Origin: Bryobacterales bacterium
Lineage (GTDB): Bacteria > Acidobacteriota > Terriglobia > Bryobacterales > UBA6623
Direction of reading: 5' to 3'
NCBI GenBank assembly: GCA_963422375.2
Contig: OY729428.2
Location: forward strand, 384,001-448,000
Length of the DNA stretch: 64,000 bases
The position numbers and the translations under genes were made by a program. Of the stretch, positions 29,280-58,347 are shown piece after piece (position 1 is the first letter of the stretch; every line of letters starts with the position of its first letter). A model generated the notes under the pieces. It saw only the letters and a list, made by a program, of their open reading frames with translations. It searched no databases and was not told where the DNA came from.

Positions 29280-31938
29280 CAGCGATTCTCAATGGGGCAT
29301 TTGGGGATTTCCAGAGTGTCTGAGAAAGGTGTCGAAGGCAGTCTGGCACTTGACTTTTCCTTGCGGCATTTGTGAGCTAGGGTGCAGGCCCCATGTCCTG
29401 GACTCGCTGCCGAGCGCCTTCCGCGAGACGGTCGCAACAAGCGCTACGAGGTCAGCGACGCCGCCGGCTGCGCCCCGGCCTGCTTCTTCACCCGGTGCGA
29501 GTCGTTGCTCGCGTTCCAGCGGCGCATGGAGCGGGACGGCTCCCGCTCCAACTGCCGGACCCTGTTCGGCGCGGGCCGCATCCCCTGCGACAACCGGATC
29601 CGCAACTTGCTCGACCGGCCGCGATCCGGCCGCGTTCGACCCGCCGTTCCGGCCGTGCCTGGAAACCGTGGCCGCGCAGGGCGCGCTCGAGCCCTTCCAG
29701 CGCCTCGACGAGCGCCTGCCGGCGGCTCCGGACGGCGTCCGGTTCCACCGCTCCGACACGGTGCGTTGCCCGCACTGCCCGCAGTGCTCGGTGCGGCACC
29801 TTGGCAGCGAGCGCCGGCCGCATCACTTCCACGCCATGGTCGCGGCCACCGCGGTAGCCGACGGCCACGCCACCGTCCTGCCGCTGATGCCCGAGTTCGT
29901 GCGCCCGCAGCAGGACGCGGCCGCGACCCGCGCCGACATGAGCGAGGACGAGCGCAAGCGGGACTGCGAGCGCAACGCCGCCAAGCGCTGGATCGCCGCT
30001 CACGGCGCCTGGCTGCAGGCCTGCCGCCCCGTCCTGCCGGGCGACGACCTGTACTGCTGCCAGCCGGCCTGCGAGGCCGCCGCGGCGGCCGGCATGGACT
30101 GCATCCGGGTACCTGATTACCAACGAACGTCAGCCGAGGATATGCTATCCTGGAGGAGGTCGGAAATCTCTGATAGGAAAGGGGATAGCAGATGAAACGC
30201 AATCGCGTGCAATGCCAGAAGGGACTCAGTCCGGGCAAGTTCCTGCAGCGCTACGGCAGCGAGGGGCCATGCGAGCAGGCCGTCTTCAAGGCCCGCCGGC
30301 CGGACGGCTTCCGCTGCCCGGAGTGCGGCTCCCGACGGCACTGCCGCATCCGCTCCCGCAAGCTCTGGCAGTGCCATGCCTGCCACCGCCGGACCTCCCT
30401 CGTCGCCGGCACGATCTTCGCCGCCACCAAGCTGCCGCTGACCGTCCGGTTCCTGGCGATCCACCTGCTGACGCAGGGCCAGCACGGCGTTTCGTCGCTG
30501 GAACTGGCGCGGCAGCTGGGCGTGAGCCGGAACACGGCTTGGAAGATGAAGCACAAGCTCTTGCAAGTGATGAAGGAGCGCGACGAGCGCGTGCCGCCGG
30601 GCGGCATCGTGCAGGTGGACGACGCCTACTGGGGCCTGCTGGGGCGGGGAGCGGACCGGCGGCAAGCGCGGTCGCGGCGCGGCGGGCCAGACGCCGTTCG
30701 TCGCCGCCGTGCAGGTCACCCAGGTCACCGCCGACGGCAAGCCGGCAAGGATGCGCCTGAGCAGCGTGGCGGGCTTCCGCAAGAAGACGCTGGCAGCATG
30801 GGCCGGACGGCACTTGCAGCCCGGCACGGAGGTGCATTCCGACGGCCCGGCCTGCTTCCGGGGCGTGGCCGACGCCGGCTGCGAGCACGTGCCGACCGTC
30901 ACCGCAGGCGGGCAGCGGAGCTGCGGGGATTCCCGCTTCTTCCGGGTCAGCACGATGCTGGGGAACGTCAAGCAGTCCCTGGCGGGAACCTGCCATGCGC
31001 TCGACGGCAAGCACCTGCCGCGGTACCTCGCCGAGTTCCGCTACCGCTTCAACCGCCGCTACGATCCGGAGGCGCTGGTCCCCCGCCTGCTCCACGCCTC
31101 CGTGCGCACCCCGCCCAGGCCTTACCGCCTCCTAACCTTGGCTGAGTCTTGTGGGTAATCAGGTCCGAATATGCAAGCCCGGATCCCACAGGCGCTTGCA
31201 CGAGGTGCCGGAGAGCCGACGGGCGAGCGGCGCGGTGCGCTCGACCGGCTGGCTGCCGCGGCGCGGGAAGGGCAAGCGGTCCGAGCGGCACCGTTTCCGC
31301 CGGACGGCCGCGGTGCCCCTGCGCCAGGGCCGCGACGCCCTGCGGGGCACTTGGCTCGAGTACGCCGTGGAGCGCGACGGCAAGCGCGCCTGCGCCAGCA
31401 GCTTCTTCACCGGTCTCGCGGTCAGCGCGGACAACGCGGAGCGGATCGCGCGGGCCGGCCGGGCGCGCTGGAAGATCGAGAACGAGGGCTTCACGAGGGC
31501 TTCAACTGCCTGGCGCGGCACGGCCGCAACTTCAAGCGCAACTTCGGGCACGGCAAGGACGGGCCGGCCAACGTGCCGGCCGTGCCGAACCCGTTCGCCT
31601 TCGCGCTCCACGCCGTGGTGCAGCGCGTCTGCGCGCTGCGGCAGCAGTGCCGGCGCAAGCTGGTCACGCGCCGCGCCCTGTTCCGGGAGCTGCAGGTCGC
31701 GCTGCGCCGGTTCCGCTTCCCGGACTGGCCGACCGTCGCAGCCGGCTACCGCCGGAGTGCGTCCGGCCGCGGGCTCGGCACTCGGCCGACCCGCGACGCG
31801 GGCCGCGCCACGGCCCTGCCCGCCGTCCGACCCTCCCGCGGGGCGGCCTCGGGAGCGCAACCTCTCGGTCAACTGATTCACCTCATCCTCCGAAACAACG
31901 TTCACGCACCCCCTTGACGGCCAAATTTAGAACCGCTG
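29280..31938 (+). mobile_element. ISNCY-like DDE insertion sequence, copy 1 (degenerate, interrupted by IS1595 copy B)
   Basis: Ends cagcgattctcaat / (reverse complement) cagcggttctaaat; 9-bp TSD ACGGCGGTT at 29271-29279 and 31939-31947; transposase motifs VLPLMPEF, DCERNAAKRW, GDDLY, GRARWKIENEGF, NFGHG. Confidence 0.9.
30112..31163 (+). mobile_element. IS1595-family insertion sequence, copy B (1052 bp), nested
   Basis: Near-identical to 12915-13966 including the frameshift. Flanks TCCGGGTA / TCCGAATA match at 6 of 8 positions. The empty site is seen in the copy at about 57475-57495. Confidence 0.95.
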
Positions 31939-32400
31939 ACGGCGGTTCGTGCGACTGGCCCGCTGCAACGGGCGGGGGCGCTGACCGCTCGGGCTCGTAG
32001 CGAGAGCAAGCCGCCACCCCGGCCCCAATCAGGGCCAGCAGCAGCATGAGGAGGGTCATGGCCACGCCGAAGACCCAGCGCATCGTCTTCAATTCTGCTA
32101 GCAGTGCATTGCGGAGGGCCTCCCAATCCCTGTCCCTGTCGTCGATCCGGTTCTCCAGCGAGGACATCCTCGTTCGCATCTCCGACCGCAGGGCATCGTT
32201 TCTTGTCCCTGTCTCAGACCGGAGGGACTCGATCAATCCTTGGAAGTGGTCGTGGCGAGGGGGCCACGCATTCTCGCGCGCGTCGAGGAGTCTGCGGGTC
32301 TCGGCTCGGCCCTCTTCGATCTTCTTCTCGATCTCCGTCCGTAACGAATCCAGATTCTCTTGGATCCGGGCCTCCAGGTCGGCTTGGGATTCGTGGCGAC
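31939..32400 (-). pseudogene. Coiled-coil protein with a C-terminal transmembrane helix, truncated by the IS
   Basis: LEARIQENLDSLRTEIEKKIEE...LRSEMRTRMSSLENRID...LKTMRWVFGVAMTLLMLLLALIGAGV; the frame is cut at the IS TSD. Start unknown. Confidence 0.6.
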
Positions 32401-33414
32401 GCCCGTCGGCAGCGGCAGCCGCGCGCCTTAGCAATTGAGGTGGCTTGGGCGGGACCGGCTTGGCTCGCGACCCGTCCGCCGTCCCGCTTCTAAGCCGGGG
32501 GCGATCCCTGCGTGACGGTCCGCCCCGGGACCGGCGCGGCTTGCTCTGCCACCTTGGCGGGCTTGGAAGGGCTGTGGCGCGTGGGCCGTCGCTAGCGTCA
32601 GGTCTACCGCAGGCAACGGAGGGCCGCCGTCCGGGACCCATCTCCAGTCGCGCGCCGAGGTCGCGGTTCGGGGCCTTCGGCCCGTCAGGGGCGCTCGGGG
32701 CGTTGCCGGCAGCTTGCCCGGAGGTTGGGCTGCAGCCGGGAAACTCGGAACTGTCGGGCCGGTCGCGCGGCGGTCAGCGGGTTCGGCCAGAAGCGGGCAG
32801 AATTGGGAACGGTCATGCCCTTGCCTTGTCAGGCTCCCTTGAATTCATTGCGGTTTGACGTAGCCGCCAAGCGGACAAGGAGCCGAAGCACCGCTCGCTG
32901 AATTGCGCTGGCACGCACTTTGGCTGTCTCGCAATGTCTGCTTGGAAGTGCCGCACCTGTGGCATCCATCCGCCAAGCCCGCCAGGCTAGGAAGGGATCT
33001 GGACAGTCTGGGTAGCGCTTAGGGGACCGCCGAGTCCGCCGCTTGCCGCGGGCCGGGGGTCCGGCAATTCCAGGCCTAGCGCGTGAATTGGTTGCACGGG
33101 TCCCCCCGACTCGCTTGACGCGGAATCCGAGAACGCCTGTCCAGCCGTTCCGGCCAGGCCGCCTCTCCAGTCGGGATTCCGGCCCACCCAGGGACGCACT
33201 CCTGCTCCTTCAGCGCCGGCATGCGCTCGCGAACCCGACGGGTAATGGGTCCGCAAGCTTACGCGCATGGGAGCGCCCATGCCTGTGCTCCCTCGGACCG
33301 CTCGGCGTTTCACGCCGGACAGGTTCCCATCGGTGCCGCGAAGTGCGCGGCCTGCGGAGTCGACGGCGCCCACGCCGTGCGCTCCCGGAGATCTGGTAGA
33401 TTCAGCACTTGGGA

Positions 33415-34353
33415 ATGTCGGCGCGCATCCTCGACGGCAGGGCGATCCGCGACAGCGTGCTGACAGAACTCGCGGGCGAAGTCGCCCGCGCCGCCGGCCT
33501 GGGTGTTCGACCCGGCCTCGCTGCCGTGCTGGTGGGCGATGACCCGGCCTCGGGAATCTATGTCCGCAACAAGATCCGCGCCTGCGACAGAATCGGCATG
33601 TTCTCGGAGACGTTGAGACTGCCGGCGGCCGCCACCACGGACGAAGTGCTCGCCATCGTAGAGGACCTCAACGCACGGGACGCCATCGACGGGATCCTCG
33701 TCCAGCTACCGCTCCCTGCCCAAGTCGACTACAGGAGAGTGCTTGCGGCAGTGGTGCCGGCGAAGGACGTCGACGGCTTTCATCCGATCAACGCCGGCAA
33801 GCTGGCCACCGGACAGACGTCCCTCGCTCCCTGCACGCCCCGCGGCCTGATCGAAATCCTGCGCAGGAGCGCGATCCCCATCAAGGGCCGCCACGCGGTG
33901 GTCGTGGGCCGCAGTAACATCGTGGGCAAGCCCGCCGCCCTGCTGTTGCTGGCCGAGCACGCGACCGTGACGATCTGCCATTCCCGGACCCCGGACCTCG
34001 CCTCTGTCTGCCGACGGGCCGACATTCTGGTGGCAGCGGCCGGCCGGCCGGCCATGATCACGCGCGAGCACATCCGAGAGGGCGCCGTCGTGCTGGATGT
34101 CGGCATCAATCGCATCGTCGACGCCGGAATCGCCGCGGACCTGCTGGCGCACTCCCCCCGGCGTCTGCAGAAATTCCGGGCGACCGGGAGCGCGCTCGTC
34201 GGGGACGTGCATCCGGGGCATGTGAGGGAAGCGGCCTCGGCCTACACGCCCGTGCCGGGAGGCGTCGGCCCCCTCACGATCGCGATGCTGATGTCGAACA
34301 CACTGCAAGCGGCCAAGCGCCGCCTGCCCGGCCTCGGCCGCTCTGCGGCATGA
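33415..34353 (+). CDS. folD: Methylenetetrahydrofolate dehydrogenase/cyclohydrolase
   Basis: PGLAAVLVGDDPAS..YVRNK, GILVQLPLP, KDVDGFHP, PCTP, GRSNIVGKP, TPVPGGVGPLTIAML. Confidence 0.98.
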   Translation: MSARILDGRAIRDSVLTELAGEVARAAGLGVRPGLAAVLVGDDPASGIYVRNKIRACDRIGMFSETLRLPAAATTDEVLAIVEDLNARDAIDGILVQLPLPAQVDYRRVLAAVVPAKDVDGFHPINAGKLATGQTSLAPCTPRGLIEILRRSAIPIKGRHAVVVGRSNIVGKPAALLLLAEHATVTICHSRTPDLASVCRRADILVAAAGRPAMITREHIREGAVVLDVGINRIVDAGIAADLLAHSPRRLQKFRATGSALVGDVHPGHVREAASAYTPVPGGVGPLTIAMLMSNTLQAAKRRLPGLGRSAA

Positions 34354-35309
34354 GCCTCGAACGCTACGGCTGGAATGCCTTCTTCGAGTCCCAGCTCCCC
34401 GGTCCGGCCGGCACGGAGCCGGGGCGCGTCCGGCTCGCGACGGCCAGGAGGGCGCAAGTCTACTCCTCCGACGGAACGGTTGACGTCGGGCTGCCCCGCA
34501 ATGTGGGCACGGCGGCCGTCGGCGACTGGCTGCTTTTCTACCGCGCCAGCCGCATCGCTGCGAGGATTCTCCGGCCGCGCGGCGTCCTCGCGCGCAACCG
34601 TCCCGGCCACGCCTCGCGCCGCCAAGTGCTGGCCTCGAACGTAGACGCCGTGCTCGTCGTTGCGGGCCTGGACCGGCCGGTCAGCGACAGGCTGATCGAA
34701 CGCTACTTGGTGTGCGTGCGCGAGTCCGGGGCCAAGGCAGTGATCGTTCTCAACAAGACCGACCTCTGCGCGGATGCGGGCGCCGCGGCCGACCGATGCG
34801 CCGCGGCCCATCCGGCGTGCCAAGTCGTGGCCGCCAGCGCGGCTACGGGAGAGGGCCTGGGCGATGTCGAGCGCCTGCTTCCCCCGGCCGGGACAACCGC
34901 GCTTGCCGGGCCGTCCGGCGTCGGGAAGTCGTCCGTAGTGAACGCACTGCTGCGAACCGAGCGCCTGCAGGTCGGTGCCGTGCGAAACCGCGACCGCCGC
35001 GGGAAGCACACCACGACACGGCGGGAACTGGTGGAGCATCCGGCCGGCTGGCTGCTCATGGACATACCCGGCATCCGGGAGATTTACCCTTGGAGCAGCC
35101 TCGAGGCGGTGGACCAAGTCTTCTCCGAGATTTCGGAACTGGCGAAGGACTGCCTGTACAGGGACTGCCGGCACCGCGGCGAGCCGGGCTGCTTGGTTCG
35201 CCCGGCACTGGACAGCGGCCGGATCGCCCCCGAGCGGCTCGCAAGCTACCTGGAGCTTCGGGGGGAGCAAGAGGAACTGGCGCGAAGCATCGACGCGGCC
35301 CGCAAGTGA
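34350..35309 (+). CDS. rsgA: Ribosome small subunit-dependent GTPase A
   Basis: AVGDW, LNKTDL, GPSGVGKSS, RGKHTTT, DIPGIRE, C.YRDC.H..EPGC. Confidence 0.95.
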   Translation: MSLERYGWNAFFESQLPGPAGTEPGRVRLATARRAQVYSSDGTVDVGLPRNVGTAAVGDWLLFYRASRIAARILRPRGVLARNRPGHASRRQVLASNVDAVLVVAGLDRPVSDRLIERYLVCVRESGAKAVIVLNKTDLCADAGAAADRCAAAHPACQVVAASAATGEGLGDVERLLPPAGTTALAGPSGVGKSSVVNALLRTERLQVGAVRNRDRRGKHTTTRRELVEHPAGWLLMDIPGIREIYPWSSLEAVDQVFSEISELAKDCLYRDCRHRGEPGCLVRPALDSGRIAPERLASYLELRGEQEELARSIDAARK

Positions 35310-35337
35310 GCGGAGCCCGACGGTCCCCTTCCGGGGC

Positions 35338-35988
35338 TCACAGCCTGCGCGCCATGAGGTTGAAGCCGTCCTGGCTCAGGCGCTCCTTGGCAGCCTCGGC
35401 TTCCGCGTCGTTCTTGAACGGCCCGACGTACACGCGGAACAGGCCGTTCGACTCCGGCATGATGTGGGCGCGGAAGCCCTCGCGGCGCAGCCAGTCCACG
35501 AGGGACTTGGCGTTCCCGCTCACGCTCAAGGCCGCCACTTGATAGTGCAGCGCGGCCGCTGCCGACGCGGTCTTCCGCGGCGCTTGCGGGACGGGCTTCG
35601 AGACCGCCCGCGACGGCGGCGCCGACGCGGGTGGCGGCCGCTTGACGGCAGGGTCCGGCCGGGCCCGCCCCGGCGCGTCGCCTCCCGCGGCGCTAGGGGC
35701 AGACTCGCGGCTTGCAGGCACCGGGGATTCGGCGGCAGCGCTGGCGGCCGGGTCGGCCGGCGCGAGCAAGACATCCGGAACCTTCACGGGCTCGGGCCGG
35801 CGCGGAGCAGGATTGTCGAGGAATGACAGCAGGCCCGGCTCGCTCCGGAGGCCTCGGCCGTAGCCTGCTTTAAAGCCCGTGAAATAGGCCACCCCGACCG
35901 CCGCCGCGAGCACCGCGACAACTATCAAGACCTGCTTGATCCCGAAGAATACTTCGACTTCGCCTTTGGGCTTCGCCTCCCCGGGCAT
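35338..35988 (-). CDS. SPOR-domain membrane protein
   Basis: N-terminal TM, Pro/Ala-rich linker, YQVAAL...FRVYVGPF SPOR domain. Confidence 0.88.
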   Translation of the reverse strand: MPGEAKPKGEVEVFFGIKQVLIVVAVLAAAVGVAYFTGFKAGYGRGLRSEPGLLSFLDNPAPRRPEPVKVPDVLLAPADPAASAAAESPVPASRESAPSAAGGDAPGRARPDPAVKRPPPASAPPSRAVSKPVPQAPRKTASAAAALHYQVAALSVSGNAKSLVDWLRREGFRAHIMPESNGLFRVYVGPFKNDAEAEAAKERLSQDGFNLMARRL

Positions 35989-36023
35989 GCCCCGATCCTA
36001 CACTGATTCCGACAATCTTGCTA

Positions 36024-36800
36024 CTACTTGTTTGAAACGTCCCTGCCGTCCATCGTCTCCGCCCATTTCGAAAGGCCGCGGAACAAGTCCACCGGCAGGG
36101 GCAGCACGACCGTGGTGTTCTTCTCGGCCCCGATCTCGGTCAGGGTCTGCAGGTAGCGCAGCGTGATCGATGCCGGCTGGGTGCTCAGCGTCTCGGCGGC
36201 GCTGGTCAGTTTCGCGGCGGCCTGCAGCTCGCCGTCGGCGTGGATAATCTTGGCCCGGCGCTCGCGCTCTGCCTCGGCCTGCCGCGCGATGGCGCGGATC
36301 ATTTGCTCGGGAAGGTCGACGTGCTTGACCTCCACCACCTGAACCTTGATGCCCCAGGTTCCGGTCTGCTCGTCCAGAGTCGACTGGAGCCTGGAATTCA
36401 GCTTCTCCCGCTCGCTGAGCAGCTCGTCCAGCTCCGCCTCGCCGAGAACGGAGCGGAGGCGGGTCTGCGCGAGCTGGGAGGTGGCATGGACGTAGTGCTT
36501 GACCTCCACCACGGCCTTGGCCGGATCCAGCACGCGGAAGAACACGACGGCGCTGACCTTGACGGTCACGTTGTCGCGCGTCACGACGTCCTGCGAAGGC
36601 ACTTCGAGAGTCTCGACCCGCAGCGGAATGCGGACGATGCGGTCGAGCGGGCGGAACACGAAGATGAGGCCCGGGCCCTTCGGGGTCGGCAGCAGCCGCC
36701 CGAGCCGAAAAATCACGCCGCGCTCGTACTCGGTGAGAACCTTGATGCTGTTGATCAGGTAGAGGGCGATGATTCCGGCGACGATGAATGGAAGCTCCAT
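36024..36800 (-). CDS. Slipin / SPFH (band 7) protein
   Basis: [49 protein letters not shown]. Confidence 0.95.
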
Positions 36801-36930
36801 GGGACTCTCCTTCAAGCGCGTGGCGCGGCCGCGCCCTCCGGGGCGGGCACGGCGAAGCCTACGCCTAGAATTCTAGCCCATCGCTTCCGGATCCCGGGCC
36901 CGGGCCTCTCGGCGACGCGGATCGCGGCCG

Positions 36931-38259
36931 CTACTGGACGCTGCCGTTCCCGCTCGGCTCCACCTCGAGCGTCATGCCATCGACCGCGACGACGCGGACG
37001 CCCTGCCCCGCCGCCACCTCCGACCGGGAGCGCGCGCTCCAGTGCTCCCCGTGCACGAACACCGTGCCGGTTGGAGCGACGGCGGTTTTCGCCTCGCCGA
37101 GCTCCCCGACCATCGCCTCGGCGCCGGTCGCAACCTTGAATCGGAACGAGCGAATCGCGAGCTGCAGCAGGAACACGCTGATCGCCGCGAACGGCAGCGT
37201 TATCGCCACGGCCGGCCCCCAGCCGATCTGCAGTTCGGGCACGTCGGTGTCAACGAGAATGACGATTCCCAGCACCATCGCGACCGCGCCGCCCGCGGCG
37301 AGGATGCCGTTCACCGGGGTCATCGCCTCGATGACGAAGAAGGCCACCGCCAGCAGGATCAGGACGGCTCCGGCCGCGTTGATCGGCAGCAGCGAGAGCG
37401 CCATCAGGCCCACGATGAGGAGAATCCCGCCGAGCACGCCCGGAATCACCAGACCGGGGCTCGTGAACTCGATGTAGACGCCGGCAAGACCGAGGACCAG
37501 CACGAGCAGGGCGAGGCTCGGATTGGTGAGAGGGAGCAGGATGCGCTGGCGCAGGCTCGGAACGTAGGCGCGCAGCTCCGGGGAGGACAGGTCCAAGACC
37601 TCCTCCGTCCCGTCGAACCGCACGACGGTCCGTCCGTCAAGCTGCTCCAGGAGGTCGTGAACGTCCTGCGCGACCACCTCGATCAGACTCGCGTCAAGGG
37701 CGTCCAGCTCAGTGAACGACTTGCTCTCCAGCACGGCCTTGACGGCCAGCTCGCTGTTTCTCCCCCGCTTGTCGGTAACCGCCCGCAGCGACGCGGCAGT
37801 GTCGTTCTCGACCTTCTGCTTCATCGGGCCCTGGAGCTCGCCGCCCATCGCCAAGACCGGCTGAGCGGCCCCTGTGTTCGTGCCGGGCGCCATGGCGGCG
37901 ATGTCGGCCGAGACGAGGATGATGAATCCGGCCGAGGCGGCGTGCCCCCCACTCGGCGACACGTACGCAATCACAGGGACAGGGGAGGCGAGGATCGACT
38001 GGACGATCTCGTTCGTCGCTTCGAGCAAGCCGCCCGGCGTGTTGAGCGTCAGCAGGACCGCCGCGTCGCCGGACTCGCCCGCCTGGTGCAGGGCCTCGGC
38101 CACGATCTCGCGGGTCAGCGGGTGGATGACCGTGTCGATATCCAGCACCAAGACGCGCCCGGCTCGCGCGCCCGAGGCCGTTCCGAGCGCCGCCGCGACC
38201 GCCAACGCCACGGACAGGGCCGCTCGACAGACGGAACTCGATCCTCCAGACGCTCGCAT
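36931..38259 (-). CDS. nfeD: NfeD long-form membrane serine protease
   Basis: LNTPGG, AASAG, AMAPGTNTGAA.P, multiple TMs, C-terminal OB fold (G.VFVHGE.W.A); adjacent to slipin. Confidence 0.93.
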   Translation of the reverse strand: MRASGGSSSVCRAALSVALAVAAALGTASGARAGRVLVLDIDTVIHPLTREIVAEALHQAGESGDAAVLLTLNTPGGLLEATNEIVQSILASPVPVIAYVSPSGGHAASAGFIILVSADIAAMAPGTNTGAAQPVLAMGGELQGPMKQKVENDTAASLRAVTDKRGRNSELAVKAVLESKSFTELDALDASLIEVVAQDVHDLLEQLDGRTVVRFDGTEEVLDLSSPELRAYVPSLRQRILLPLTNPSLALLVLVLGLAGVYIEFTSPGLVIPGVLGGILLIVGLMALSLLPINAAGAVLILLAVAFFVIEAMTPVNGILAAGGAVAMVLGIVILVDTDVPELQIGWGPAVAITLPFAAISVFLLQLAIRSFRFKVATGAEAMVGELGEAKTAVAPTGTVFVHGEHWSARSRSEVAAGQGVRVVAVDGMTLEVEPSGNGSVQ

Positions 38260-38586
38260 CGCGCCCTAAGTGTAATGCAGGCAGCCGGATCAACGGGCCG
38301 GGCCGTCGGAGGCGGCGGCCGCGGCGACGCGCTGTCAGAAGCGGATCCCAAGGCGGGGGCAGCCCGCCCGGCGGGGCCGGATGCCTCGCCGCGACCGCCC
38401 GACCGGGAAGGCAGCCGGACGGAAACCGAGCCCGGTCGGATCCGACAGCGCGGCGCGATGGCAGGCGAGCGCGAGACGCTCGAAATGCCGGTCCACCGCA
38501 TATCGTGCATTCGTCGCAGTGCGTAGCACAACATGTTGAATCGACGGCCCGAGGAACGCGGCAGCGGGTTACAATGGGGCGCTCGG

Positions 38587-45244: not shown

Positions 45245-45253
45245 TGAGCCTTC

Positions 45254-48495: not shown

Positions 48496-48879
48496 ACCTG
48501 ACTATTATGCATCCCCTGTCGGCTTGCGGAACGGGTCGCGAGGTGGCGGAACAGCCGGGCCACTCGGAGGGCCCGCGGCGGCACGGGCCAGTCTGCGGAG
48601 CACGCACGGGCACGAGCGAGGCCTAGGCAGGCGCGGCCAAACTCCCGCTGCCAGCGGCCCGCCGCGCGGCGGCCGCGGTCGAATGATGCCTGCGAGGCCT
48701 CGGGGTCGGCGGGGGCCGACAGGCCCGGTCGGCCAATGCCGCCCGCTGGATCGCCAAGCGGGCTCGCAGCGCCGCACGGCGCTGCGGATCCCAGCCGGCG
48801 CGGGCCGGCCGCACGGAATGCCGGGGCGCAAGCCGGCGCGGGCGGGCACCCGGTCTCTCTGGTAGGTTGAAGAGCCCGC

Positions 48880-50298
48880 GTGTTCCAACGCCATCAGCAG
48901 CGCGCGATCCTGCTGTTCGCTGCGGCCGACGCTGCCCTAGCGTCGATTTCCTTCGCCGCGGCCTACTGGACGCGCACCGGACTGCCGATAAGGGAGTTCC
49001 GGCTCGAGGCACCGACCGGGACGCTCGCCTTTATCGCCGCCACGGCGTCCGTCGTGATCTCCGGCAGGGTCACCGGAGCGTACGCCAGCCTATACGAAGC
49101 GGGCGTCCCCGGGGCCGTCGGCGCCACGGCGCGGCAGGCCGCGGCAACCGCGCTGTCGCTGCTGGCGTTCCTGTACCTGCTGAACCTGGACGTGCCTGTC
49201 AGCCGCCTATTCCTAGCCTTCTTCTTCGGCTTCCTGCTCGCGCTGCAGGTGGTCCAGCGCGTTCTGGCCGCCCGGTTTCGCGGCCAGCTGCGCAGGGCGC
49301 TCGGGACCGTGACGTCGGTCGTGGTTGTCGGCGACGGCGACAAGGCGGCGGAGATCGCGCGGCAGCTGGAATCCTCGGAGCGCCACGGCGTGCGGCTGCT
49401 CGGGATCGTCGGCTGCGGCGACCGGCTCGGGCGCGCCGTCACGCTGGGCCGGACCTACCGGGTCCGCCCGCTGGCCGAGCTGCCCGCCATGCTGGCCGGC
49501 GAGGCCATCGACGAGGTGCTGTTCGCCGTCTCCGGCGAGCGTCTGGGCGATCTCGAGGACGCGTTCATCCTGTGCGGCGAGCACGGCATCAAGACGCGGG
49601 TAGCGGCGGACTTCTTCCCCCACGCCCACAGCCGGGCGCGCTTCGACCGCCTCGGCGACCGCCCGATCCTGACCTTCTCGATCGGTCCCGACGACGACCT
49701 CCGGCTGCTCGCCAAGCGGTGCGCCGACCTGCTCGCCGCCGCCGCGGGCCTCGCGGCGCTGTGCCTGCCAATGGCCTTGGTCGCGTTGCTGGTAAGGACG
49801 ACCTCGACGGGGCCGGCACTCTTCCGCCAGCGGCGCTGCGGGCTGAACGGAAGGGTGTTCACCTGCTACAAGTTCCGCTCGATGGTCGCGGACGCGGAGG
49901 CGCGCCGCGAGGATCTGGAGCACCTCAACGAGAAGGACGGCCCGGCGTTCAAGATCCGCGACGACCCCCGCCTTACGCCGGTCGGAGGGTTCCTGCGACG
50001 CTACTCGGTCGACGAGTGGCCCCAGCTCTGGAACATCCTGCGGGGCGACATGTCGTTCGTCGGGCCGCGGCCGGCGGTCCCGTCGGAAGTGCAACGGTAC
50101 GAGACGTGGCAGCGCCGTCGGCTGCGCATGCGTCCGGGCCTGACCTGCCTGTGGGCGATCCGCGGACGGGACCGCCTCGACTTCGAGACGTGGATGCAGC
50201 TCGACCTGGAATACATCGATAGCTGGTCGCTCCTGCTCGATGCGAAGATCCTCGCCCTGACGGTGCCCGTAGTGCTGGCCGGCCGCGGCGCGAGCTGA
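48880..50298 (+). CDS. Polyprenyl-phosphate sugar-1-phosphate transferase (WcaJ/WbaP-like)
   Basis: N-terminal TMs, CoA-binding-like domain, KRCADL, FRQRRCG.NG..F..YKFRSM, DPRLT..G.FLR..S.DE.PQL.N, GDMSFVGPRP, PGLT. Confidence 0.95.
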   Translation: MFQRHQQRAILLFAAADAALASISFAAAYWTRTGLPIREFRLEAPTGTLAFIAATASVVISGRVTGAYASLYEAGVPGAVGATARQAAATALSLLAFLYLLNLDVPVSRLFLAFFFGFLLALQVVQRVLAARFRGQLRRALGTVTSVVVVGDGDKAAEIARQLESSERHGVRLLGIVGCGDRLGRAVTLGRTYRVRPLAELPAMLAGEAIDEVLFAVSGERLGDLEDAFILCGEHGIKTRVAADFFPHAHSRARFDRLGDRPILTFSIGPDDDLRLLAKRCADLLAAAAGLAALCLPMALVALLVRTTSTGPALFRQRRCGLNGRVFTCYKFRSMVADAEARREDLEHLNEKDGPAFKIRDDPRLTPVGGFLRRYSVDEWPQLWNILRGDMSFVGPRPAVPSEVQRYETWQRRRLRMRPGLTCLWAIRGRDRLDFETWMQLDLEYIDSWSLLLDAKILALTVPVVLAGRGAS

Positions 50299-50386
50299 AG
50301 CGGGCGCGCGGAGAGCGCCCCCGCGACGGCACCGGAGGCCGCCCGTGAGGCACCTTGGTATCCTCGTAGGCTCCCGGGATTCCCCC

Positions 50387-53335
50387 ATGCGCCCAGCCGC
50401 CCTCCGAACACTCGCCGCGACGCTTTGCGCAGCCTCCCTGCTCCCGGGCCAGTCGTCAACGCAGACGACGCTGCGCAACCCTCCCCCGGGAGCCACCCAC
50501 GCGCTGCTGGTGACCTTCGGCGTCGGCGCCAAGACCCAGACCGCCTGGGACGGGAGCCTAGAGGTCGAGAACGGCGAGCTGGTGGAGCTGATCGGCTACG
50601 AGATGGGGCGGGACGACGTGATCCACCCGCCGCGACGGTGGGAGATGTCCACGCGACCGGCCTTTCCGTTCAGCCGCCGGAACCATGACGAGGGCATTCT
50701 CCAGGATTTGCCGCCCGACACCTACCTGACGCCGCGGTTCTACGTGTACCTCAACGGCTCGCCCGCCACCGAAGTCGCGTTCCGAACGGAGCAGGGAGAC
50801 TTCTCGGTCCGCGTGGCGGACCTGCCCGCGGTCGGAGGGGCGGAATTCGTGGACGGCAGGGCCCGCGTGGCGCGGGCCCCGATCGCGGCGCTGCTAGGCC
50901 GGGGAGACCCCGGGCCGCCAGACAGGCGGCTGACGGACAATGACTTCGCTTCCGTCGAGGTGGCCTCGGACGATTCGGTTTGGGTCGCCTACAGCGGGTT
51001 CGACGGGGATTCCGACCGAGTCTACGCGGACCGGCTGCTGCCCGGGCAGCCCGTGGGCTCTCCGAACGGCCCTAGTGCAGTGAGCGGGGCCGGCGGAGAC
51101 GTCTATCGCACGACCGTCGCCGAAGACGCGGAGGGCAAGATCTGGGTGGCATGGTCCGAGCAGGTCGGGGGCAACTGGGATCTCTACGCCCGCGCGTTCG
51201 ACGGCGAGGGCTGGGGCCGGATCGAGCGGCTGACGTCAGCCGCCCAGCCCGACATCCACCACAAGGCCGCGCGCGACCCGCAGGGAGGGATTCACCTGGT
51301 GTGGCAGGGCGCCCGCGGCAACCGCTTCGGCATTTTCCACAGGAGCTACGACGTCCGGACGGGCTGGAGCGAGGCCGCGCGCGTGAGTTCGCCCTCGGCA
51401 GGCAACTGCTGGGAACCGTCGATCGCGATCGACAGCACCGGCACGGTGTCGGTGGCATGGGACCAGTACAGCGAGGCGACGGGCTACGACGTATACCTGG
51501 CGAGGAAGGCCGGAGCGAATTGGGACGCCCCCCGGCCGGTCGCGCGCACCGGGCGATTCGAAGCCTACGCCACCGTGACGGCGGACTCGCAGGACCGTAT
51601 CTGGATCGCGTGGCACGAATCCGGGATCAACTGGGGCAAGGACTGGGGATACCCGTTCGACATCCAGGCGAACGCCACCGGCCTGTACAACTCGCGCAGC
51701 ATCCGCATGGCCGTCTACGACCGGGGCCAGCTGCGCGCTCCGGCCGCGAGTCTCGCGGCGTCCCTGCCCGACCCCGGTCCCGGCAACAATTTCTACGAGT
51801 ACCCGCAGCTAGCCGTCGACGGAGCCAACAGGATCTGGGCGCTCTTCCGCCACCGGCGGCCGATGCAGCACAACGTCTACTGGCGCACGCCGTCGCATCA
51901 CGCCCTGTGGGAGGTCTACGCCAGCTATTACGACGGCGAGTCGTGGTCGCCGATGCTCCTGCTGCCCTATTCGACCGGGCGAGCGGACATGCGGGTCGAG
52001 ACCGCAACGGACTCTTCCGGGCGCCTGGTCGCTGCGTACCCCACTGACCGGCGCAGCTTCCGGGACTTCGTCAACGTGATGCTCGACATCTTCGTGACGC
52101 GCCTGCCCGCACCGGAGGGCGGCACGGCCTCCCACCGGCTGCGCGGTTACCAGTTGCCGCCCGCGGAGGCCGCCCGCCAGCCGCCGAACCGGCCCGGGCG
52201 CGAGATGGCCGCGAGCGAGCCAGTCCACCCCAACGACGAGCGGGACGTGGCGAGGATCCGGAACTACGTCTACGAGATCGGCGGCCGACGCTACAAGATC
52301 TACCGCGGGGACATGCACCGCCACACCGAAATCTCCTGGGACGGCTACAACGACGGCTCCACCGAAGACACCTACCGCTACGCCATCGATCCCGGGGCGC
52401 TGGACTTCCTAGCGATCACCGAGCACAACTTCGGCGTCGCCGACGAGTACGACTGGTTCCGCAGCCAGAAGTACGCGGACATCTTCCGGGTGGGTTCATC
52501 CTTCGTGCCGCTGTTCGCCTACGAACGCTCGATCAAGTACCCCAACGGCCACCGCAACGTGGTCTTCCCGTACCGCGGCGCGCCGATCCTCGACTACCAG
52601 CACTACGAATGGGGGCCGAACGCGAGCTACGCCCGCCAGGGCCCGGAGCGATTCTTCGCGTACCTCCGCAAGTACAAGGGCATCGCCATGGCGCACACGT
52701 CGGGCACCGACATGGGCACCGACTGGGCCGACTACGACCCCGAGGTGGAGCCGATCGTCGAGATTTACCAGAGCGACCGCAACAGCTACGAATGCGAGGG
52801 CTGCTGGCGCTCGGCGCCGACGGACGAGCCCAAGAAGCAGTTCGGTGGCTACAGGCCCGACGGGATGGTCTCGGCGGCCTGGGCGAAGGGCTACCGACTC
52901 GGCGTGCAGGCGAGTTCTGACCACCTCGCCGTGCATACGTCGTACTCGATGCTGCTGGCCGAGGAGAACTCGCGCAACTCCCTGGTCAGCGCGATCCGGG
53001 CGCGGCGGACCTACGGGGCGACGGACAACATCATCGTGGATTTCCGGCTTGTCGACGGCACCCGCGAATACCTCATGGGGGAGGAGGCGGCCATCGCCGG
53101 ACCGCCGACCTTCCGCATGCACGTGGAAGGCACCGACAGGCTCGGGGAGATCGAGGTCGTCAAGAACAACCAGCGCGTCTACCGGCAGACCCCCGGAACG
53201 CAGGTCGCAGACTTCGAGTACCGCGACAGCGGCACGCCGGGCGAGGAAGCGGACTTCTACTACGTGCGCGTGCGCCAGTCCGACCGCGACAAGCAGGTGG
53301 CTTGGAGCTCGCCCATCTGGGTAACCGGGCGCTAG
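50387..53335 (+). CDS. Large secreted protein: beta-propeller-like repeats plus a PHP-like metallohydrolase (DUF3604/CehA-McbA-like)
   Basis: Signal peptide; D..G.iWvAW repeats; GDMHRHTEIS.DG, DFLAITEH, GHRNV, ASSDH, RRTYGAT, YYVRVRQ...AWSSPIWV. Confidence 0.78.
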   Translation: MRPAALRTLAATLCAASLLPGQSSTQTTLRNPPPGATHALLVTFGVGAKTQTAWDGSLEVENGELVELIGYEMGRDDVIHPPRRWEMSTRPAFPFSRRNHDEGILQDLPPDTYLTPRFYVYLNGSPATEVAFRTEQGDFSVRVADLPAVGGAEFVDGRARVARAPIAALLGRGDPGPPDRRLTDNDFASVEVASDDSVWVAYSGFDGDSDRVYADRLLPGQPVGSPNGPSAVSGAGGDVYRTTVAEDAEGKIWVAWSEQVGGNWDLYARAFDGEGWGRIERLTSAAQPDIHHKAARDPQGGIHLVWQGARGNRFGIFHRSYDVRTGWSEAARVSSPSAGNCWEPSIAIDSTGTVSVAWDQYSEATGYDVYLARKAGANWDAPRPVARTGRFEAYATVTADSQDRIWIAWHESGINWGKDWGYPFDIQANATGLYNSRSIRMAVYDRGQLRAPAASLAASLPDPGPGNNFYEYPQLAVDGANRIWALFRHRRPMQHNVYWRTPSHHALWEVYASYYDGESWSPMLLLPYSTGRADMRVETATDSSGRLVAAYPTDRRSFRDFVNVMLDIFVTRLPAPEGGTASHRLRGYQLPPAEAARQPPNRPGREMAASEPVHPNDERDVARIRNYVYEIGGRRYKIYRGDMHRHTEISWDGYNDGSTEDTYRYAIDPGALDFLAITEHNFGVADEYDWFRSQKYADIFRVGSSFVPLFAYERSIKYPNGHRNVVFPYRGAPILDYQHYEWGPNASYARQGPERFFAYLRKYKGIAMAHTSGTDMGTDWADYDPEVEPIVEIYQSDRNSYECEGCWRSAPTDEPKKQFGGYRPDGMVSAAWAKGYRLGVQASSDHLAVHTSYSMLLAEENSRNSLVSAIRARRTYGATDNIIVDFRLVDGTREYLMGEEAAIAGPPTFRMHVEGTDRLGEIEVVKNNQRVYRQTPGTQVADFEYRDSGTPGEEADFYYVRVRQSDRDKQVAWSSPIWVTGR

Positions 53336-53486
53336 CCGCGGGCTCCGGGCCGGGGCCCGCAGGCGTCAACGCAGGAGGGGCTTCCCGCCGACGCGGGAAC
53401 CAGCCGCCCCGGCAGCGCCGCGTTCGGAATGCCCCGGAAGGGGATTTCGTCTGGACCGGGCGGCGCGCTCGCCCGAGGCTCCGGCC

Positions 53487-54497
53487 TTACACCGCGAAGC
53501 CGTGCTGCCTGCGGTGGTGCGGCCCGTCGAACTGCTGCGTCGACTTGAACCTCTCGTGCCGGCCGTCGCCGGCCACGTCGGCGACTCGCGACACTAGCAC
53601 CGCCTTGGCCTCGTCGGTCATCGGCTTGAAGTTCCGCCCGACCGCGATATCGGCCTTCAGCTCTTCCAAGGAGCGGATCCCTACCACGACCGTGGAAACC
53701 GGCAAGCTGAGGGCGTAGCGCCGGCACTCGGCATGCGTGAGCGAGGTCTTCGACGGGAGCTCGCCTCGGGGCGACCCGCCGCCAAGGCTCTTCATGCCCA
53801 CCACGCCCACGTCGAGCGCCAAGCACAGGGGGACGACTTCCTTCTGGAAGCTGCGGTAGTGCGCGTCCATTACGTTGATGGGCATCTGGGACGTGTCCCA
53901 GTCATAGGGCTTGTTGAGCATCTTGGCGTGGATGCTGGGATCCTTGTGCCCAGTGAAACCGATGTAGCGCACCTTGCCGGCCTTGCGCGCTTCGAGGGCC
54001 GCCTTGAGGCCGCCCTTGTCGAACACCCAGTCGGGGTCGGAGTCGTAGACCATCTCGTGGAACTGCCACAGGTCGATACGGTCGGTCTTCATGCGCCGCA
54101 AGCTGTCCTCGAGGTTGCTCATGGAGCCCTTGTAGTCGCGCTCGCAGTTCTTGGTCATCAGGAAGACCTTGTCGCGCTTGCCGGGCTCGGACATGGCACG
54201 GCCCATGATCTCCTCGGACCCGCCGTCGTGGTAGTCCCAGGCGTTGTCGAAGAAGGTCATTCCCTCGTCGATCGCCGCATGCATGATCCGAATCGCTTCC
54301 GACTTGTCCTGGACCGCGCCGATGTGCCAGCCGCCGAGGCACAGGATCGAAACCTGCTCGCCGGTGCGGCCCAAGCGCCGTGTGGGCAGGCCGTTCGGGC
54401 TGTCCTGCTGGGCCAGCGCCTGCTGGGCCAGCGCGCCGGCGGCAGCGCTTCCGAACATTCCCTGGAAGAACGAGCGACGAGTAGCGTCGAGCGGCAT
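53487..54497 (-). CDS. Aldo/keto reductase with Tat signal
   Basis: TRRSFF, RRLGRTGEQVS, FFDNAWDY..G.SE, FLMTK, SLRRMKTDRIDL, GKVRYIGFTGH. Confidence 0.93.
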   Translation of the reverse strand: MPLDATRRSFFQGMFGSAAAGALAQQALAQQDSPNGLPTRRLGRTGEQVSILCLGGWHIGAVQDKSEAIRIMHAAIDEGMTFFDNAWDYHDGGSEEIMGRAMSEPGKRDKVFLMTKNCERDYKGSMSNLEDSLRRMKTDRIDLWQFHEMVYDSDPDWVFDKGGLKAALEARKAGKVRYIGFTGHKDPSIHAKMLNKPYDWDTSQMPINVMDAHYRSFQKEVVPLCLALDVGVVGMKSLGGGSPRGELPSKTSLTHAECRRYALSLPVSTVVVGIRSLEELKADIAVGRNFKPMTDEAKAVLVSRVADVAGDGRHERFKSTQQFDGPHHRRQHGFAV

Positions 54498-54744
54498 CGT
54501 GAACCTCCTGCGCCGGTGCGACGCCGCCCCATGGTACAGGATTCCGCGCCAGCGGGCTCGAGACTCGGACTCCAGCGGCCGGGACGCCCCGTCGTCCGGC
54601 GGACGGGCCTCGAGTGCGCCGAACGCCCTTGCCGGCTTGCGGGACCGGGAACCGCCGCGAACGGACGGTAGGCGATGATGGAGGTCCGTGTTTCGCGCCG
54701 GCCCGGTTTCGCCCGCGAGACCCGGCTCGGCACCAACAAGTCCA

Positions 54745-56378
54745 ATGAACGTCTCGAGAGCCGTCGCGAAGATGCTCAAGCAGGAAGGCGTGGAGCGGCT
54801 TTTCGCCTATCCGGTCAATCCGGTGATCGAGAGCTGCGCCGAGGAGAACATCCGAACCGTGATCGTGCGGCAGGAGCGGACCGGCCTGCACATGGCGGAC
54901 GCGGTCGGCCGCCTCAGTTCCGGACGCAAGGTGGGTGTGTTCGCCATGCAACACGGCCCCGGCGCGGAGAACTCGTTCGGCGGGGTCGCGCAAGCCTACA
55001 GCGAATCGGTCCCGCTGATGGTCCTGCCCGCCGGCTACGCGCGCGGGCGCGCCGGCGTGCACCCGCACTTCGGCTCGCTGGAGAACTACCGCGGCGTCAC
55101 CAAGTCGGTCGAGCGGGTCACGGTCCCGGCCGCGGTGCCCGGCGCGCCTTCACGCAGGCCAAGAACGGCCGCCCGGGCCCCTGCATGGTCGAGATCCCCT
55201 GGGATCTATTCGGCTCCGAGTTCCCCGGCGGGCTGGACTACCGCCCGTCGATTCGCACCCTCAGCGGGCCGGACCCCGACGCCGTGCGCGAGGCAGCGCG
55301 GATTCTAGTCGACGCGGACCTTCCGGTGATCTACGCGGGGCAAGGAGTCCACTACGGGAAGGCTTGGCGGGAACTTCGGGAATTGGTCGACCTACTCGAG
55401 GCCCCCGTGACCACCAGCATCGAGGGCAAGAGCGCGATTCCGGAATCGCATCCGCTCTCGCTGCAGTCCGGCGGCAGGGCCTACTCCAAGGCAATGGACG
55501 TATTCCTCCGCCGTGCCGACATTGTTCTCGGCGTCGGCGCCAGCTTCACGCAGACGGCCTTCGGCATACCGTGGGGCAACTACCTCGCGGACACGACCGT
55601 GATCCAGTCCACGGTTGACACGGCGGACCTGCACAAGGACGTGCCAATCGACCTCGGGCTCGTGGGCGACGCGCGTCTCACCCTCGCGGCCCTCGTCGAC
55701 GAAGTCCGCCGCCTGCTCCCGGAGCCGCGTGGCCGCGCTGCGTCGCTAGCGAGCGAGATCGCCGCGATCCACGGCGAGTGGCGCGCCGCGTGGAGCGCGA
55801 AGCTCGACTCCGAGGACACGCCGATCAATCCCTACCGCGTCATTCGCGACCTGCTGAACACGGTCGACGTGGCCAATGCGATCATCACCCATGACGCGGG
55901 GAGCCCGCGTGACCAGCTGACGCCGTTCTGGGAGTGCCAGGCTCCGCTGAGCTACATCGGCTGGGGCAAGACTACGCAGCTCGGCTACGGGCTGGGCCTG
56001 GCCATGGGGGCCAAGCTGGAACATCCCGACAAGCTCTGCATCAACTGGTGGGGCGACGCCGCGATCGGATTCACCGGAATGGACTTCGAGACCGCGGTGC
56101 GAGAGCGCATACCGATCCTATCCGTGCTGTCGAACAACTTCTGCATGGCGATCGAGCTTCCGATCATGCGGACAGCGACTAGAAAGTACGGCAGCACCGA
56201 CATCTCCGGCAACTACGCGGCATTCGCGAACGCGCTTGGCGGATACGGGGAGAGAGTCAGCGACCCCGCGGAAATCGTTCCTGCGATCCGTCGCGGAATC
56301 GCCAAGACAGAGCAGGGAGTGCCTGCCCTGCTCGAGTTCATCACGTCGAAGGAGCAGGAGATCTCGCGGTTCGCGTAG
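54745..56378 (+). pseudogene. Thiamine-diphosphate-dependent enzyme (acetolactate synthase-like), frameshifted near 55140
   Basis: Frame 1: RQERTGLHMADA, QHGPGAEN. Frame 2: RRAFTQAKNGRPGP.MVEIP, PVIYAGQG, HDAGSPRDQ, GDAAIG. The frameshift may be a sequencing error. Confidence 0.85.
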
Positions 56379-56605
56379 CGCTTCGCCGGCGCGGCAGGTG
56401 GCGCTCGATATTGCTCAGGGATGGGCGCGGTCGAGGTGCGGGCGGAGCGGGACCTCGTATGCCGGACAGCGGCTCCGTCGCTGCCGGGCATCACTGTTCG
56501 AGGCCCGGCCCGCTTTACCAGGACGGTGCCGAGGCCGTCGCCAAGCATCGGGGTCCGAGAACCCGCTTCGGAGCTCGTCGCTGAGCACAGCCTTCGCCCG
56601 GAACG

Positions 56606-58347
56606 CAGCGGTTCTAAATTTGGCCGTCAAGGGGTGCGTGAACGTTGTTTCGGAGGATGAGGTGAATCAGTTGACCGAGAGGTTGCGCTCCGGAGGCCGC
56701 CCCGCGGGAGCGTCGGACGGCGGGCAGGGCCGTGGCGCGGCCCGCGTCGCGGGTCCGCGGAGTGCCGAGCCCGCGGCCGGACGCACTCCGGCGGTAGCCG
56801 GCTGCGACGGTCGGCCGCTGGCCGGACGCTGCCGGCACGAAACTGCGCGGAGTCCAGGCCCCGGCCGCCTGGCAGCCCGGAGGCGCGCGTCCGGCGCGCA
56901 CCGCCGCCAGCAGAGTCGGCCGGTCCGGAAAGCGGAACCAGCGCAGCGCGACCTCCAGCTCCTGGAACAGGGCGCGGCGCGTGACCGGCTGGCGCCGGCA
57001 CTGCTGCCACAGCGCACAGACGCACTGCACCACGGCCTGCACCACGGCCTGCACCACGGCGTGGAGCGCGAAGGCGAACAGGTTCGGCACGGCCGGCACG
57101 TTGGCCAGCCCTTCCTTGCCGTGCCCGAAGTTGCAGTTGCGGCCGTGCCGCGCCAGGCAGTTGAAGCCCTCGTTCTCGATCTTCCAGCGCGCCCGGCCGG
57201 CCCGCGCGATCCGCTCCGCGTTGTCCGCGTTGTCCGCGAGACCGGTGAAGAAGCTGCTGGCGCAGGTGCGCTTGCCGCCGCGCTCCATGGCGTACTCGAT
57301 CCAAGTGCCCCGCAGGGCGTCGCGGCCCTTGCGCAGGGGCACCGCGGCCGTCCGGCGGAAACGGTGCCGCTCGGACCGCTTGCCCTTCCCGCGCTGCGGC
57401 AGCCCGCCGGTCGAGCGCACCGCGCCGCTCGCCCGCCGGCTCTCCGGCACCTCGTGCAAGTGCTTGCGGGATCCGGGCTTGCATACCCGGATGCAGTCCA
57501 TGCCGGCCGCCGCGGCGGCCTCGCAGACCGGCTGGCAGCAGTGCAGGTCGTCGCCCGGCAGGACGGGGCGGCAGGCCTGCAGCCAGGCGCCGCGAGCGGC
57601 GAGCCAGCGTTTGGCGGCGTTGCGCTCGCAGTCCCGCTTGCGCTCGTCCTCGCTCATGTCGGCGCGGGTCGCGGCCACGTCCTGCTGCGGGCACGCGAAC
57701 TCGGGCATCAGCGGCAGGACCGTGGCGTGGCCGTCGGCCACCGCGGTGGCCGCGACCATGGCGTGGAAGTGATGCGGCCGGCGCTCGCTGCCGACGCGCC
57801 GCACCGAGCACTGCGGGCAATGCACCCTGTCGGAGCGGTGGAACCGGACGCCGTCCGGAGCCGCCGGCAGGCGCCCGTCGAGGCGCTGGAAGGGCGCGAG
57901 CGCGCCCTGCGCGGCCACGGTTGCGAGGCACGGCCGGAACAGCGGGTCGAACGCGGCCGGGTCGCGGTCGTCGAGCAAGTTGCGGATCCGCTTGTCGCAG
58001 GGGCTGCGGCCCGCGCCGAACAGGGTCCGGCAGTTGGAGCGCGAGCCGTCCCGCTCCATGCGCCGCTGGAACGCGAGCAACGACTCGCACCGGGTGCAGA
58101 AGCAGGCCGGGGCGCACCAGGGCGCAACCGGCGGCGTCGCTGACCTCGTAGCGCTTGTTGCTGCGACCCTCGCGCCGGTCGGGCCGGCCGGCGGCCGTCT
58201 CGCGGAAGGCGCTCGGCAGCGCGTCCAGGACATGGGGCATTCACCCTAGCTCACACATTCCGCTAGCAAAAGTCAAGTGCCAGACTGCCTGCGACACCTT
58301 TCTCAGACACTCTGGAAATCCCCAAAGGCCCAAATTGAGAATCGCTG
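56606..58347 (-). mobile_element. ISNCY-like insertion sequence, copy 2 (degenerate)
   Basis: Same ends as 29280-31938, inverted; transposase frameshifted by a 10-bp duplication at 58107-58126; no matching TSD. Confidence 0.9.

Follow-up and report, generated by a model that had tools for sequence, protein, structure and literature searches.

Two copies of a transposase element in one stretch of a Bryobacterales genome differ repeatedly by CTGG or CCAG in one copy and CCGG in the other, which raises the question of whether some process pushes the mobile elements of this bacterium toward CCGG and, if so, by what means. The stretch, hereafter the window, comprises 64,000 nucleotides of contig OY729428.2 (positions 384,001 to 448,000; G000:C2:384001-448000 in our numbering). 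An original prediction attributed the differences to T-to-C changes made by a process that relies on very-short-patch repair and resembles fungal repeat-induced point mutation (RIP). Our analysis of genomic copies of the affected insertion sequences (ISs) reveals AT-to-GC alleles that spread among the copies of high-copy families, with CTGG as the strongest context. Biased gene conversion between IS copies is the best explanation for this pattern, and we consider it probable.

Insertion sequences of the window

The genome (6.0 Mb, 67% GC) contains 867,810 bases of repeats across 548 regions, which are mostly 88-96% alike, and hits at 99-100% are very few. Three IS families are carried by the window, namely F1 and F0, which both belong to IS1595, and F3, a DDE element present as two inverted copies.

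29280..30111, plus strand: left half of F3 copy 1, a DDE transposase IS (earlier labelled ISNCY) with about 50 genomic pieces in its family
30112..31164, plus strand: IS1595 copy B (F1, about 107 copies), inside F3 copy 1, with alleles W36R, W86R, L213P and W>R in FWV
31164..31938, plus strand: right half of F3 copy 1, with CCGG near 31565, 31685 and 31709 and CTGG near 31661 and 31726
56606..58347, minus strand: F3 copy 2, in the orientation opposite to copy 1
58107..58126, minus strand: 10-bp tandem duplication in which an ancestral CTGG unit adjoins a derived CCGG unit
12914..13967, plus strand: IS1595 copy A (F1)
15531..16881, minus strand: divergent and decayed copy of F0 (about 120-150 copies), within a methylase gene

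The differences between CTGG or CCAG and CCGG do fall in both F3 copies. They account for 5 of 68 substitutions; all five lie toward the end of the transposase, and the pair gaCTGG/gaCCGG adjoins a deletion. The units at 58107-58126 likewise differ by CCAG/CCGG; the duplication, however, is common to about 20 copies. Odd residues that had been ascribed to the same change recur throughout the IS1595 copies, where W36R is present in 14 of 98, W86R in 71 of 99, L213P in 83 of 97, and the FWV W>R change in 80 of 81. The element at 15.5 kb, which proved to be the second IS1595 family (F0), carries its W>R change in 87/101 copies and its Q>R change in 86/98. The ISNCY label of F3 was not confirmed, and an intact homolog gave only weak matches, below cut-off, to the DDE_Tnp_1_assoc, DDE_Tnp_1 and IS4 models. 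On the basis of such profile models, F3 is at most weakly IS4/ISAs1-like.

AT-to-GC alleles spread and their reversals do not

Raw counts against a majority consensus are confounded by alleles shared among copies, and were set aside in favour of outgroup polarisation. Ancestral states were taken from intact homologs in other genomes of the genus, and positions were kept where at least 75% agreed. Sites in strong linkage blocks (56, 2, 5, 16, 48, 20 and 7 across seven families) were left out before counting. This polarisation upholds the predicted T-to-C direction. The following counts give the number of non-synonymous sites in three families at which the derived allele has a frequency of zero, 0-5, 5-10, 10-30, 30-60 and >60%.

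T>C: 353, 58, 17, 20, 13, 27
T>G: 415, 50, 14, 11, 10, 4
C>T: 528, 90, 2, 0, 1, 3
C>A: 800, 38, 1, 1, 2, 4
C>G: 795, 45, 11, 5, 5, 2
T>A: 486, 14, 2, 1, 1, 0

Alleles of the C>T type arise as often as T>C alleles, yet they almost never spread. Sites at 5-60% versus 0-5% frequency number 50 versus 58 for T>C and 35 versus 50 for T>G, compared with 3 versus 90 for C>T and 4 versus 38 for C>A. Pooled by direction, the counts are 85 versus 108 for AT>GC and 7 versus 128 for GC>AT (p 3e-16). Seven sites with a derived frequency above 80% (three C>T, four C>A) were deemed mispolarised and probably represent lineage-specific ancestral residues; they are retained in the counts above and excluded from the context and model fits.

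The drive depends strongly on sequence context. At CTGG, the derived C allele is present in at least 10% of copies at 19 of 31 sites, compared with 41 of the 457 other T sites (odds ratio 16, p 1.5e-11), as the original prediction had anticipated. The mean derived frequency at CTGG is 0.39, the highest of any context, with 7 of the 31 sites untouched; it is followed for T>C by GTA (0.24), GTG (0.13) and other CTG (0.07), and T before a pyrimidine is scarcely affected (0.001-0.03). A second arm consists of T>G changes at TT[CG], which cause K>Q and F>C replacements, and a weaker one of C>G changes at TCC (F>L). CTGG is a preference and not an exclusive site, a latitude that the original prediction had allowed, and GTA, GTG, A>C at AAG/ATG, TTC>TGC and TTC>TTG are driven as well. 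Nor does context settle the fate of a site, since the changed fraction runs from 0% to 90% in identical contexts, and the 7-mer GCTGGCC alone has derived frequencies from 0 to 0.84. Some CTGG changes are fixed or almost fixed within a family. There is no excess of C>T at CCGG.

No full-length copy is intact in the three families: the least affected copy carries 7, 6 and 27 damaging changes among 71, 87 and 22 copies, respectively, the last of these values (F3) being inflated by residues polarised in a second frame. The median is 13 to 36 damaging changes per copy. These data support the earlier proposal that transposases are killed through W>R and L>P changes.

The drive is confined to high-copy repeats

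Three genes for TonB-dependent receptors, each split by an IS and carrying frameshifts (one also with stops), served as a single-copy control, with intact orthologs at 83-93% identity. The methylase pseudogene of the window was left out of this set because it has too few close homologs to polarise. In the three pseudogenes, CTGG>CCGG is found at 0 of 62 sites, T>C at 3/1573, T>G at 5/1676, C>T at 15/1868 and C>A at 9/2457, which is an ordinary AT-leaning decay. The three IS copies embedded within the same pseudogenes show changes at 9 of 24 CTGG sites, with T>C at 31/476 and C>T at 4/593 (p 3e-6 and 3e-17 for the comparison of the pseudogenes with their embedded ISs).

Repeats of low copy number also lack the signature. 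Among 59 low-copy repeat pairs, C[Y]GG differences (31/520) are no more common than N[Y]Y differences (394/6803), a tally that excludes a prophage-like triplicate that dominated a first set of 85 pairs. The high-copy families exhibit a CTGG enrichment of 1.8 to 5.7 fold. Across the genome there is no depletion of the motif, with observed/expected ratios of 1.04 for CCGG and 1.06 for CTGG. The AT>GC drive is therefore restricted to multi-copy repeats, within which the motif is real, and the idea that unselected DNA in general is pushed toward CCGG does not survive the control.

IS copies exchange short stretches of sequence

The 88-89 full IS1595 copies do not form a tree. There are 82 sites polymorphic at 10% or more, and almost every pair of these sites displays all four gametes. 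The correlation between sites (r2) is 0.17 for sites 1-3 bp apart, drops to 0.07 at a spacing of 4-20 bp, and amounts to 0.02 past 40 bp, against a null value of 0.011. On sequence grounds, the copies appear to be mosaics in which linkage has all but vanished past about 20-40 bp. Because hot spots that mutate recurrently might produce a similar decay, additional tests of exchange were made. Rare alleles are carried together over tens of bases in F3, F4 and F7, where the co-carrying of such alleles at 6-30 bp versus >300 bp is 36/160 versus 46/2811, 15/98 versus 28/1472 and 4/28 versus 12/570. Private mutations become fewer as the number of derived alleles in a copy rises (F0: rho -0.49, p 5e-6), a correlation that is negative in five of five families and significant in two. 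Short tandem duplications, the one at 58107-58126 among them, often carry both alleles, with units that differ at 25 of 87 hot positions and at 32 of 1085 cold ones, and the order of the alleles within them (8 AT-first, 5 GC-first) is uninformative. The 8-bp target duplications are kept in 45 of 83 full F1 copies, which indicates that exchange proceeds mostly without crossover. Together, the decay of linkage, the rare-allele tracts, the two-allele duplications and the retained target duplications fit non-reciprocal exchange. In F3, copies below 85% identity hold fewer derived alleles (observed/expected 0.63-0.76).

Copies A and B of F1 in the window are near-identical over about 800 bp centrally and carry different alleles at both ends, as expected for a long conversion tract. 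Short tandem duplications in F0, F1 and F8 are of fewer kinds than deletions and have more carriers (in F1, 82 carriers have duplications of 17 kinds, and 39 have deletions of 25 kinds), which may point to loop repair that favours insertions during conversion.

Biased conversion compared with other explanations

A per-site simulation was used to compare models, and its figures are rough owing to its crude assumptions of constant copy number and independent sites. For CTGG, the log-likelihood is -53 with biased conversion, compared with -101 for unbiased conversion, -177 for no conversion, and -165 to -225 for uniform hypermutation. In the joint fit that performs best, each site of each copy undergoes about 10 conversions while 0.2-1.6% of sites are mutated. 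The fitted bias is 0.75 at CTGG; other T>C changes take 0.5, T>G changes 0.3, and C>A and C>T changes -0.3 to -0.6.

These fits bear directly on the RIP-like process of the original prediction, in which an editor would recognise repeated DNA and introduce T>C and A>C mutations there afresh. Such an editor would account for an effect seen in repeats only, for divergent F0 copies that are fully affected, for the absence of any influence of distance, and for the high seeding rate that the fit requires at CTGG. However, the changed fraction in identical contexts varies from 0 to 90%, and uniform hypermutation fits worse by more than 100 log-likelihood units. Moreover, two- to four-copy repeats are not enriched, private mutations drop instead of climbing with load, and recombination is visible independently. 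We consider this editor improbable; the data behave as existing alleles spreading between copies. Slightly less probable still is a process in which errors accumulate over rounds of dead-copy transposition in trans and are then shuffled by unbiased recombination. Unbiased conversion is indeed needed for the neutral C>G and T>A classes, and the few nearly identical copies that have target duplications of their own reflect either recent movement or long conversion. This process leaves unexplained why the equally frequent C>T alleles never spread (3 versus 90), in the joint fit its unbiased models fall short by 90 to 300 log-likelihood units, and none of the 71, 87 and 22 full-length copies is an intact helper.

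The remaining explanations are very unlikely. Frequency spectra alone cannot separate drive from selection (PMC4450053), such that selection on the organism for GC or for dead transposases might filter conversion that is otherwise unbiased. Against this stand the near absence of drive on T>C before a pyrimidine, the many damaging changes that copies already hold, and the drift of the pseudogenes toward AT. A mutator acting on all unselected DNA, whether Vsr or a polymerase, deserves even less credence. Vsr overexpression is mutagenic in E. coli (PMC2715241), and rare variants within the IS copies lean toward GC, but about 24 changed CTGG sites would be expected in the pseudogenes at the IS mean where none is found, the pseudogene spectrum is biased to C>T, and CTGG is not depleted genome-wide. 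Equally hard to sustain is an artefact of sequencing, polishing or assembly, which could still touch the arrangement of alleles along single copies (two Hi-C runs yielded 6 and 17 partial reads). Intact genes are clean, as 239 orthologs from the 478 open reading frames (ORFs) in 660 kb of the relative G005 show W-codon C|TGG>CGG at 4/548 and L-codon CTG|G>CCG at 3/917; a class of 70 'pseudo' ORFs, mostly antisense frames and upstream extensions, was discarded from this check. Contigs from run X2 (2023), which may be the source sample itself, agree with 9.8 kb of unique DNA without a single difference and contain both alleles at many IS sites, and contigs from run X1 (2015, another study) hold the same IS alleles.

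Several observations weigh against biased gene conversion or the enzymes proposed for it below. Rare-allele clustering is weak in F1 (2/408 versus 8/4020), F0 copies below 85% identity carry derived alleles fully (observed/expected 1.05-1.16), and similarity between copies is independent of genomic distance. Driven sites show no clear 5'/3' polarity of patches, and linkage around them is mostly within 1-5 bp. The seeding rate fitted at CTGG (0.016) exceeds the T>C rate of the pseudogenes (0.002). Rare T>G contexts track the hot T>G contexts (rho 0.73), which suggests a possible mutational origin for some of this arm, and fast unbiased conversion also fits T>G when it is taken alone. The single-copy control comprises three pseudogenes only, and the embedded IS copies could have brought their alleles in at insertion. 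A search of the genome did not find comEC, and its MutY-like gene scores 282 bits, just under the cut-off of 286.5. Finally, the CTGG arm is not seen in young IS families of the relatives G046, G021, G044 and G015 (0/18, 0/10, 0/18 and 0/10), which are small and thus of low power for this arm. The relatives that have vsr at the same locus (G015 0/10, G044 0/18 and 0/18, G003 1/46) lack a clear CTGG arm, and give no support to a simple link between vsr presence and the arm.

Candidate repair enzymes

If biased conversion is at work, IS copies would recombine with one another without crossing over, and mismatches in the resulting heteroduplexes would be resolved in one direction. A single T>C or A>C mutation in one copy would then pass into the others, and C>T or C>A mutations would be erased. 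A T/C difference between two copies would form a T:G mismatch that Vsr could convert to C:G, most strongly at CTGG/CCGG, and an A/C difference would form an A:G mismatch that MutY could convert to C:G. A C:C mismatch is not corrected by mismatch repair, and this could account for the weakness of the C>G class.

The original prediction proposed a Vsr-like activity, and the genome indeed has one intact vsr gene (L002:1285-1722). Its product matches PF03852 at 105 bits and the structure 1cw0 at E 1e-29, and retains the catalytic motifs of the latter, with RPD and HGCFWH. The gene is an orphan in this genome, with no adjoining methylase gene, and its neighbour is presumably a nucleoside phosphorylase-like gene, an arrangement also found in about nine relatives. 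All 24 of the genus relatives searched possess Vsr, and in G022 a C5 methylase match adjoins vsr and is a candidate cognate methylase. Among other repair genes, MutS, MutL and two members of the uracil-DNA glycosylase (UDG) family are present, and NucS was not found in the genome search. No CCGG methylase was identified among the 18 C5-methylase matches of the genome. What we take to be a DnaE2-like polymerase motif lies at G000:C2:2840093-2843392.

Given conversion, judged by motif and direction, Vsr is somewhat favoured as the driver of the T:G to C:G arm, with a Mug/UDG-family glycosylase or a MutSL bias as the alternative. The A>C arm cannot be the work of Vsr. For this second arm, MutY is a candidate to which we assign an even chance. 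Copy-number-dependent destruction of transposases is more likely to be a by-product of repair than a defence that has evolved. Vsr and MutY acting on IS heteroduplexes might constitute a ratchet that senses copy number, in which W>R, L>P, K>Q and F>C changes would be fixed faster the more copies there are, up to the loss of every active transposase. This notion is tentative, and we place it a little below even likelihood.

Relatives in the genus

In the young IS families of G046, G021, G044 and G015, shared damaging A>C alleles occupy 21 of 902 sites, compared with 2 of 1039 for C>T, and where inspected these A>C alleles show non-tree patterns. Copies below 90% identity were dropped, which removed 8 of 11 in G008 and 1 of 10 in G015. 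The IS1595 copies of G021 (L140-L148) look like block mosaics of two isoforms, which might represent a younger stage of recombination between copies.

The 27F primer site of the 16S gene (L001, G000:C1:1573013-1574505; L073-L094) reads GAGTTTGATCCCGGCTCAG, with CCTGG>CCCGG at a normally conserved U. This change was considered as a sign of artefact and rejected, since it is common to 22 of 23 genus 16S sequences, and it implies that standard 27F primers mismatch the genus. The exception, the 16S of G011 (77% identical), is probably foreign or a contaminant.

Other features of the window and genome

Two additional features of the window are listed here.

14777..17145, minus strand: C5 cytosine methyltransferase pseudogene, interrupted by the F0 copy and with in-frame stops
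441..860, minus strand: degenerate repeat fragment (earlier labelled TnpB) with an SQSRG allele

The SQSRG allele had been listed among the odd residues. It is present, at window position 754 and outside the range given for it, and TCCTGG is kept in 1 of 10 related fragments; the TnpB assignment is unconfirmed by Pfam/NCBIfam models. The methylase pseudogene is AT-rich and is one of many broken or split C5 methylase genes (G000:C2:3046024, C2:3168304, C1:1832772 and the window gene), several with stops or frameshifts. Another C5 methylase (L003-L005) is carried by a segment of about 45 kb that exists in three near-identical copies (G000:C1:1-22000 + 1824000-1844793, C2:1307800-1350200, C3:1-28700 + 479700-494768). 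Its prophage-like nature is a guess. Two of these copies lie at contig ends, so that the assembly breaks there.

The 25 kb between the two F3 copies consists of intact ordinary housekeeping genes, which we take to include folD, rsgA and ruvAB-like genes, and the inverted copies bracketing these core genes are a possible inversion substrate. Elsewhere (L238:484-3516), an F3 copy lies directly upstream of, and shares an open frame with, an apparently intact gene, presumably one encoding a homoserine acetyltransferase-like protein.

Comparison with known systems

A literature search, with most subscription journals and supplements outside its reach, returned no report of directional conversion among IS copies. 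In effect, about 100 dead copies act as a population within one genome, for which single-copy pseudogenes provide a built-in control. This makes for an unusually direct record of GC-biased gene conversion (gBGC) in a bacterium, in which the bias can be read for each mismatch type and context and so leads to predictions of enzymes, namely Vsr on T:G in CTGG and MutY on A:G. The existence of bacterial gBGC and the enzyme responsible are described as open, with evidence that is mostly correlations (Lassalle et al. 2015, PMC4450053). Our data resemble that process in the recombination-linked bias toward fixation of G/C, whereby harmful alleles can be driven against AT-biased mutation (PMC4450053). 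The published study relies on a correlation between GC and recombination among alleles of core genes (PMC4450053), whereas the conversion described here involves paralogues within a single genome and is followed through frequency spectra and a non-repeat control, with strong context. Such a context effect is not expected of gBGC, and the weak drive on T>C before C or T, compared with CTGG, GTA, GTG and TT[CG], suggests a context-specific variant of it.

The candidate enzymes have precedents in heteroduplex repair. A Vsr bias is reported in phage lambda crosses, and MutY-type short-patch repair is reported to act on recombination heteroduplexes at the pneumococcal ami36 marker. Repair by Vsr, as in the E. 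coli Dcm/Vsr system, shares with our case the T:G to C:G direction, and the genomic signature here is a preferred context with CTGG at the top. Vsr is known as a guard against 5-methylcytosine deamination; here it would act on IS heteroduplexes. The Neisseria enzyme V.NgoAXIV cleaves T:G in CTGG/CCGG (PMC6116569), and orphan Vsr-like genes are known, such as that for Caulobacter VsrA (PMC12907096). In H. pylori, MutY repairs A:G to C:G in short patches of heteroduplex DNA formed during recombination, with fine mosaics and lowered linkage as in the IS copies, although there this follows transformation between strains and does not take place among IS copies (PMC2582958).

Exchange among dead elements also has a precedent. 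Cordaux is said to have described, in 2009, gene conversion among degraded IS copies of Wolbachia. In a related account, dead copies exchange sequence as they do here, with homogenisation reported and no directional bias seen in the portion of the text available (PMC3205602). For IS families such as those of the present genome, a practical warning is that their majority consensus encodes dead proteins and that trees and ages of their copies are misleading.

The fungal process to which the signature was first likened provides the last comparison. RIP introduces new C>T mutations into any duplication, and is repeat-dependent, directional and destructive to mobile elements. The process in this genome is likewise confined to repeats, directional and ruinous for mobile elements. 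However, its direction is AT>GC and not C>T, it spreads existing alleles, it needs many copies and spares simple duplications, and it does not strike all sites of its motif alike. It works like gBGC and resembles RIP in outcome, and it departs from RIP in two defining respects. Were the proposed ratchet true, it would offer a copy-number-dependent path to IS extinction and a bacterial functional counterpart of RIP directed toward GC, and would allow enzymes of gBGC to be named from their sequence footprints.

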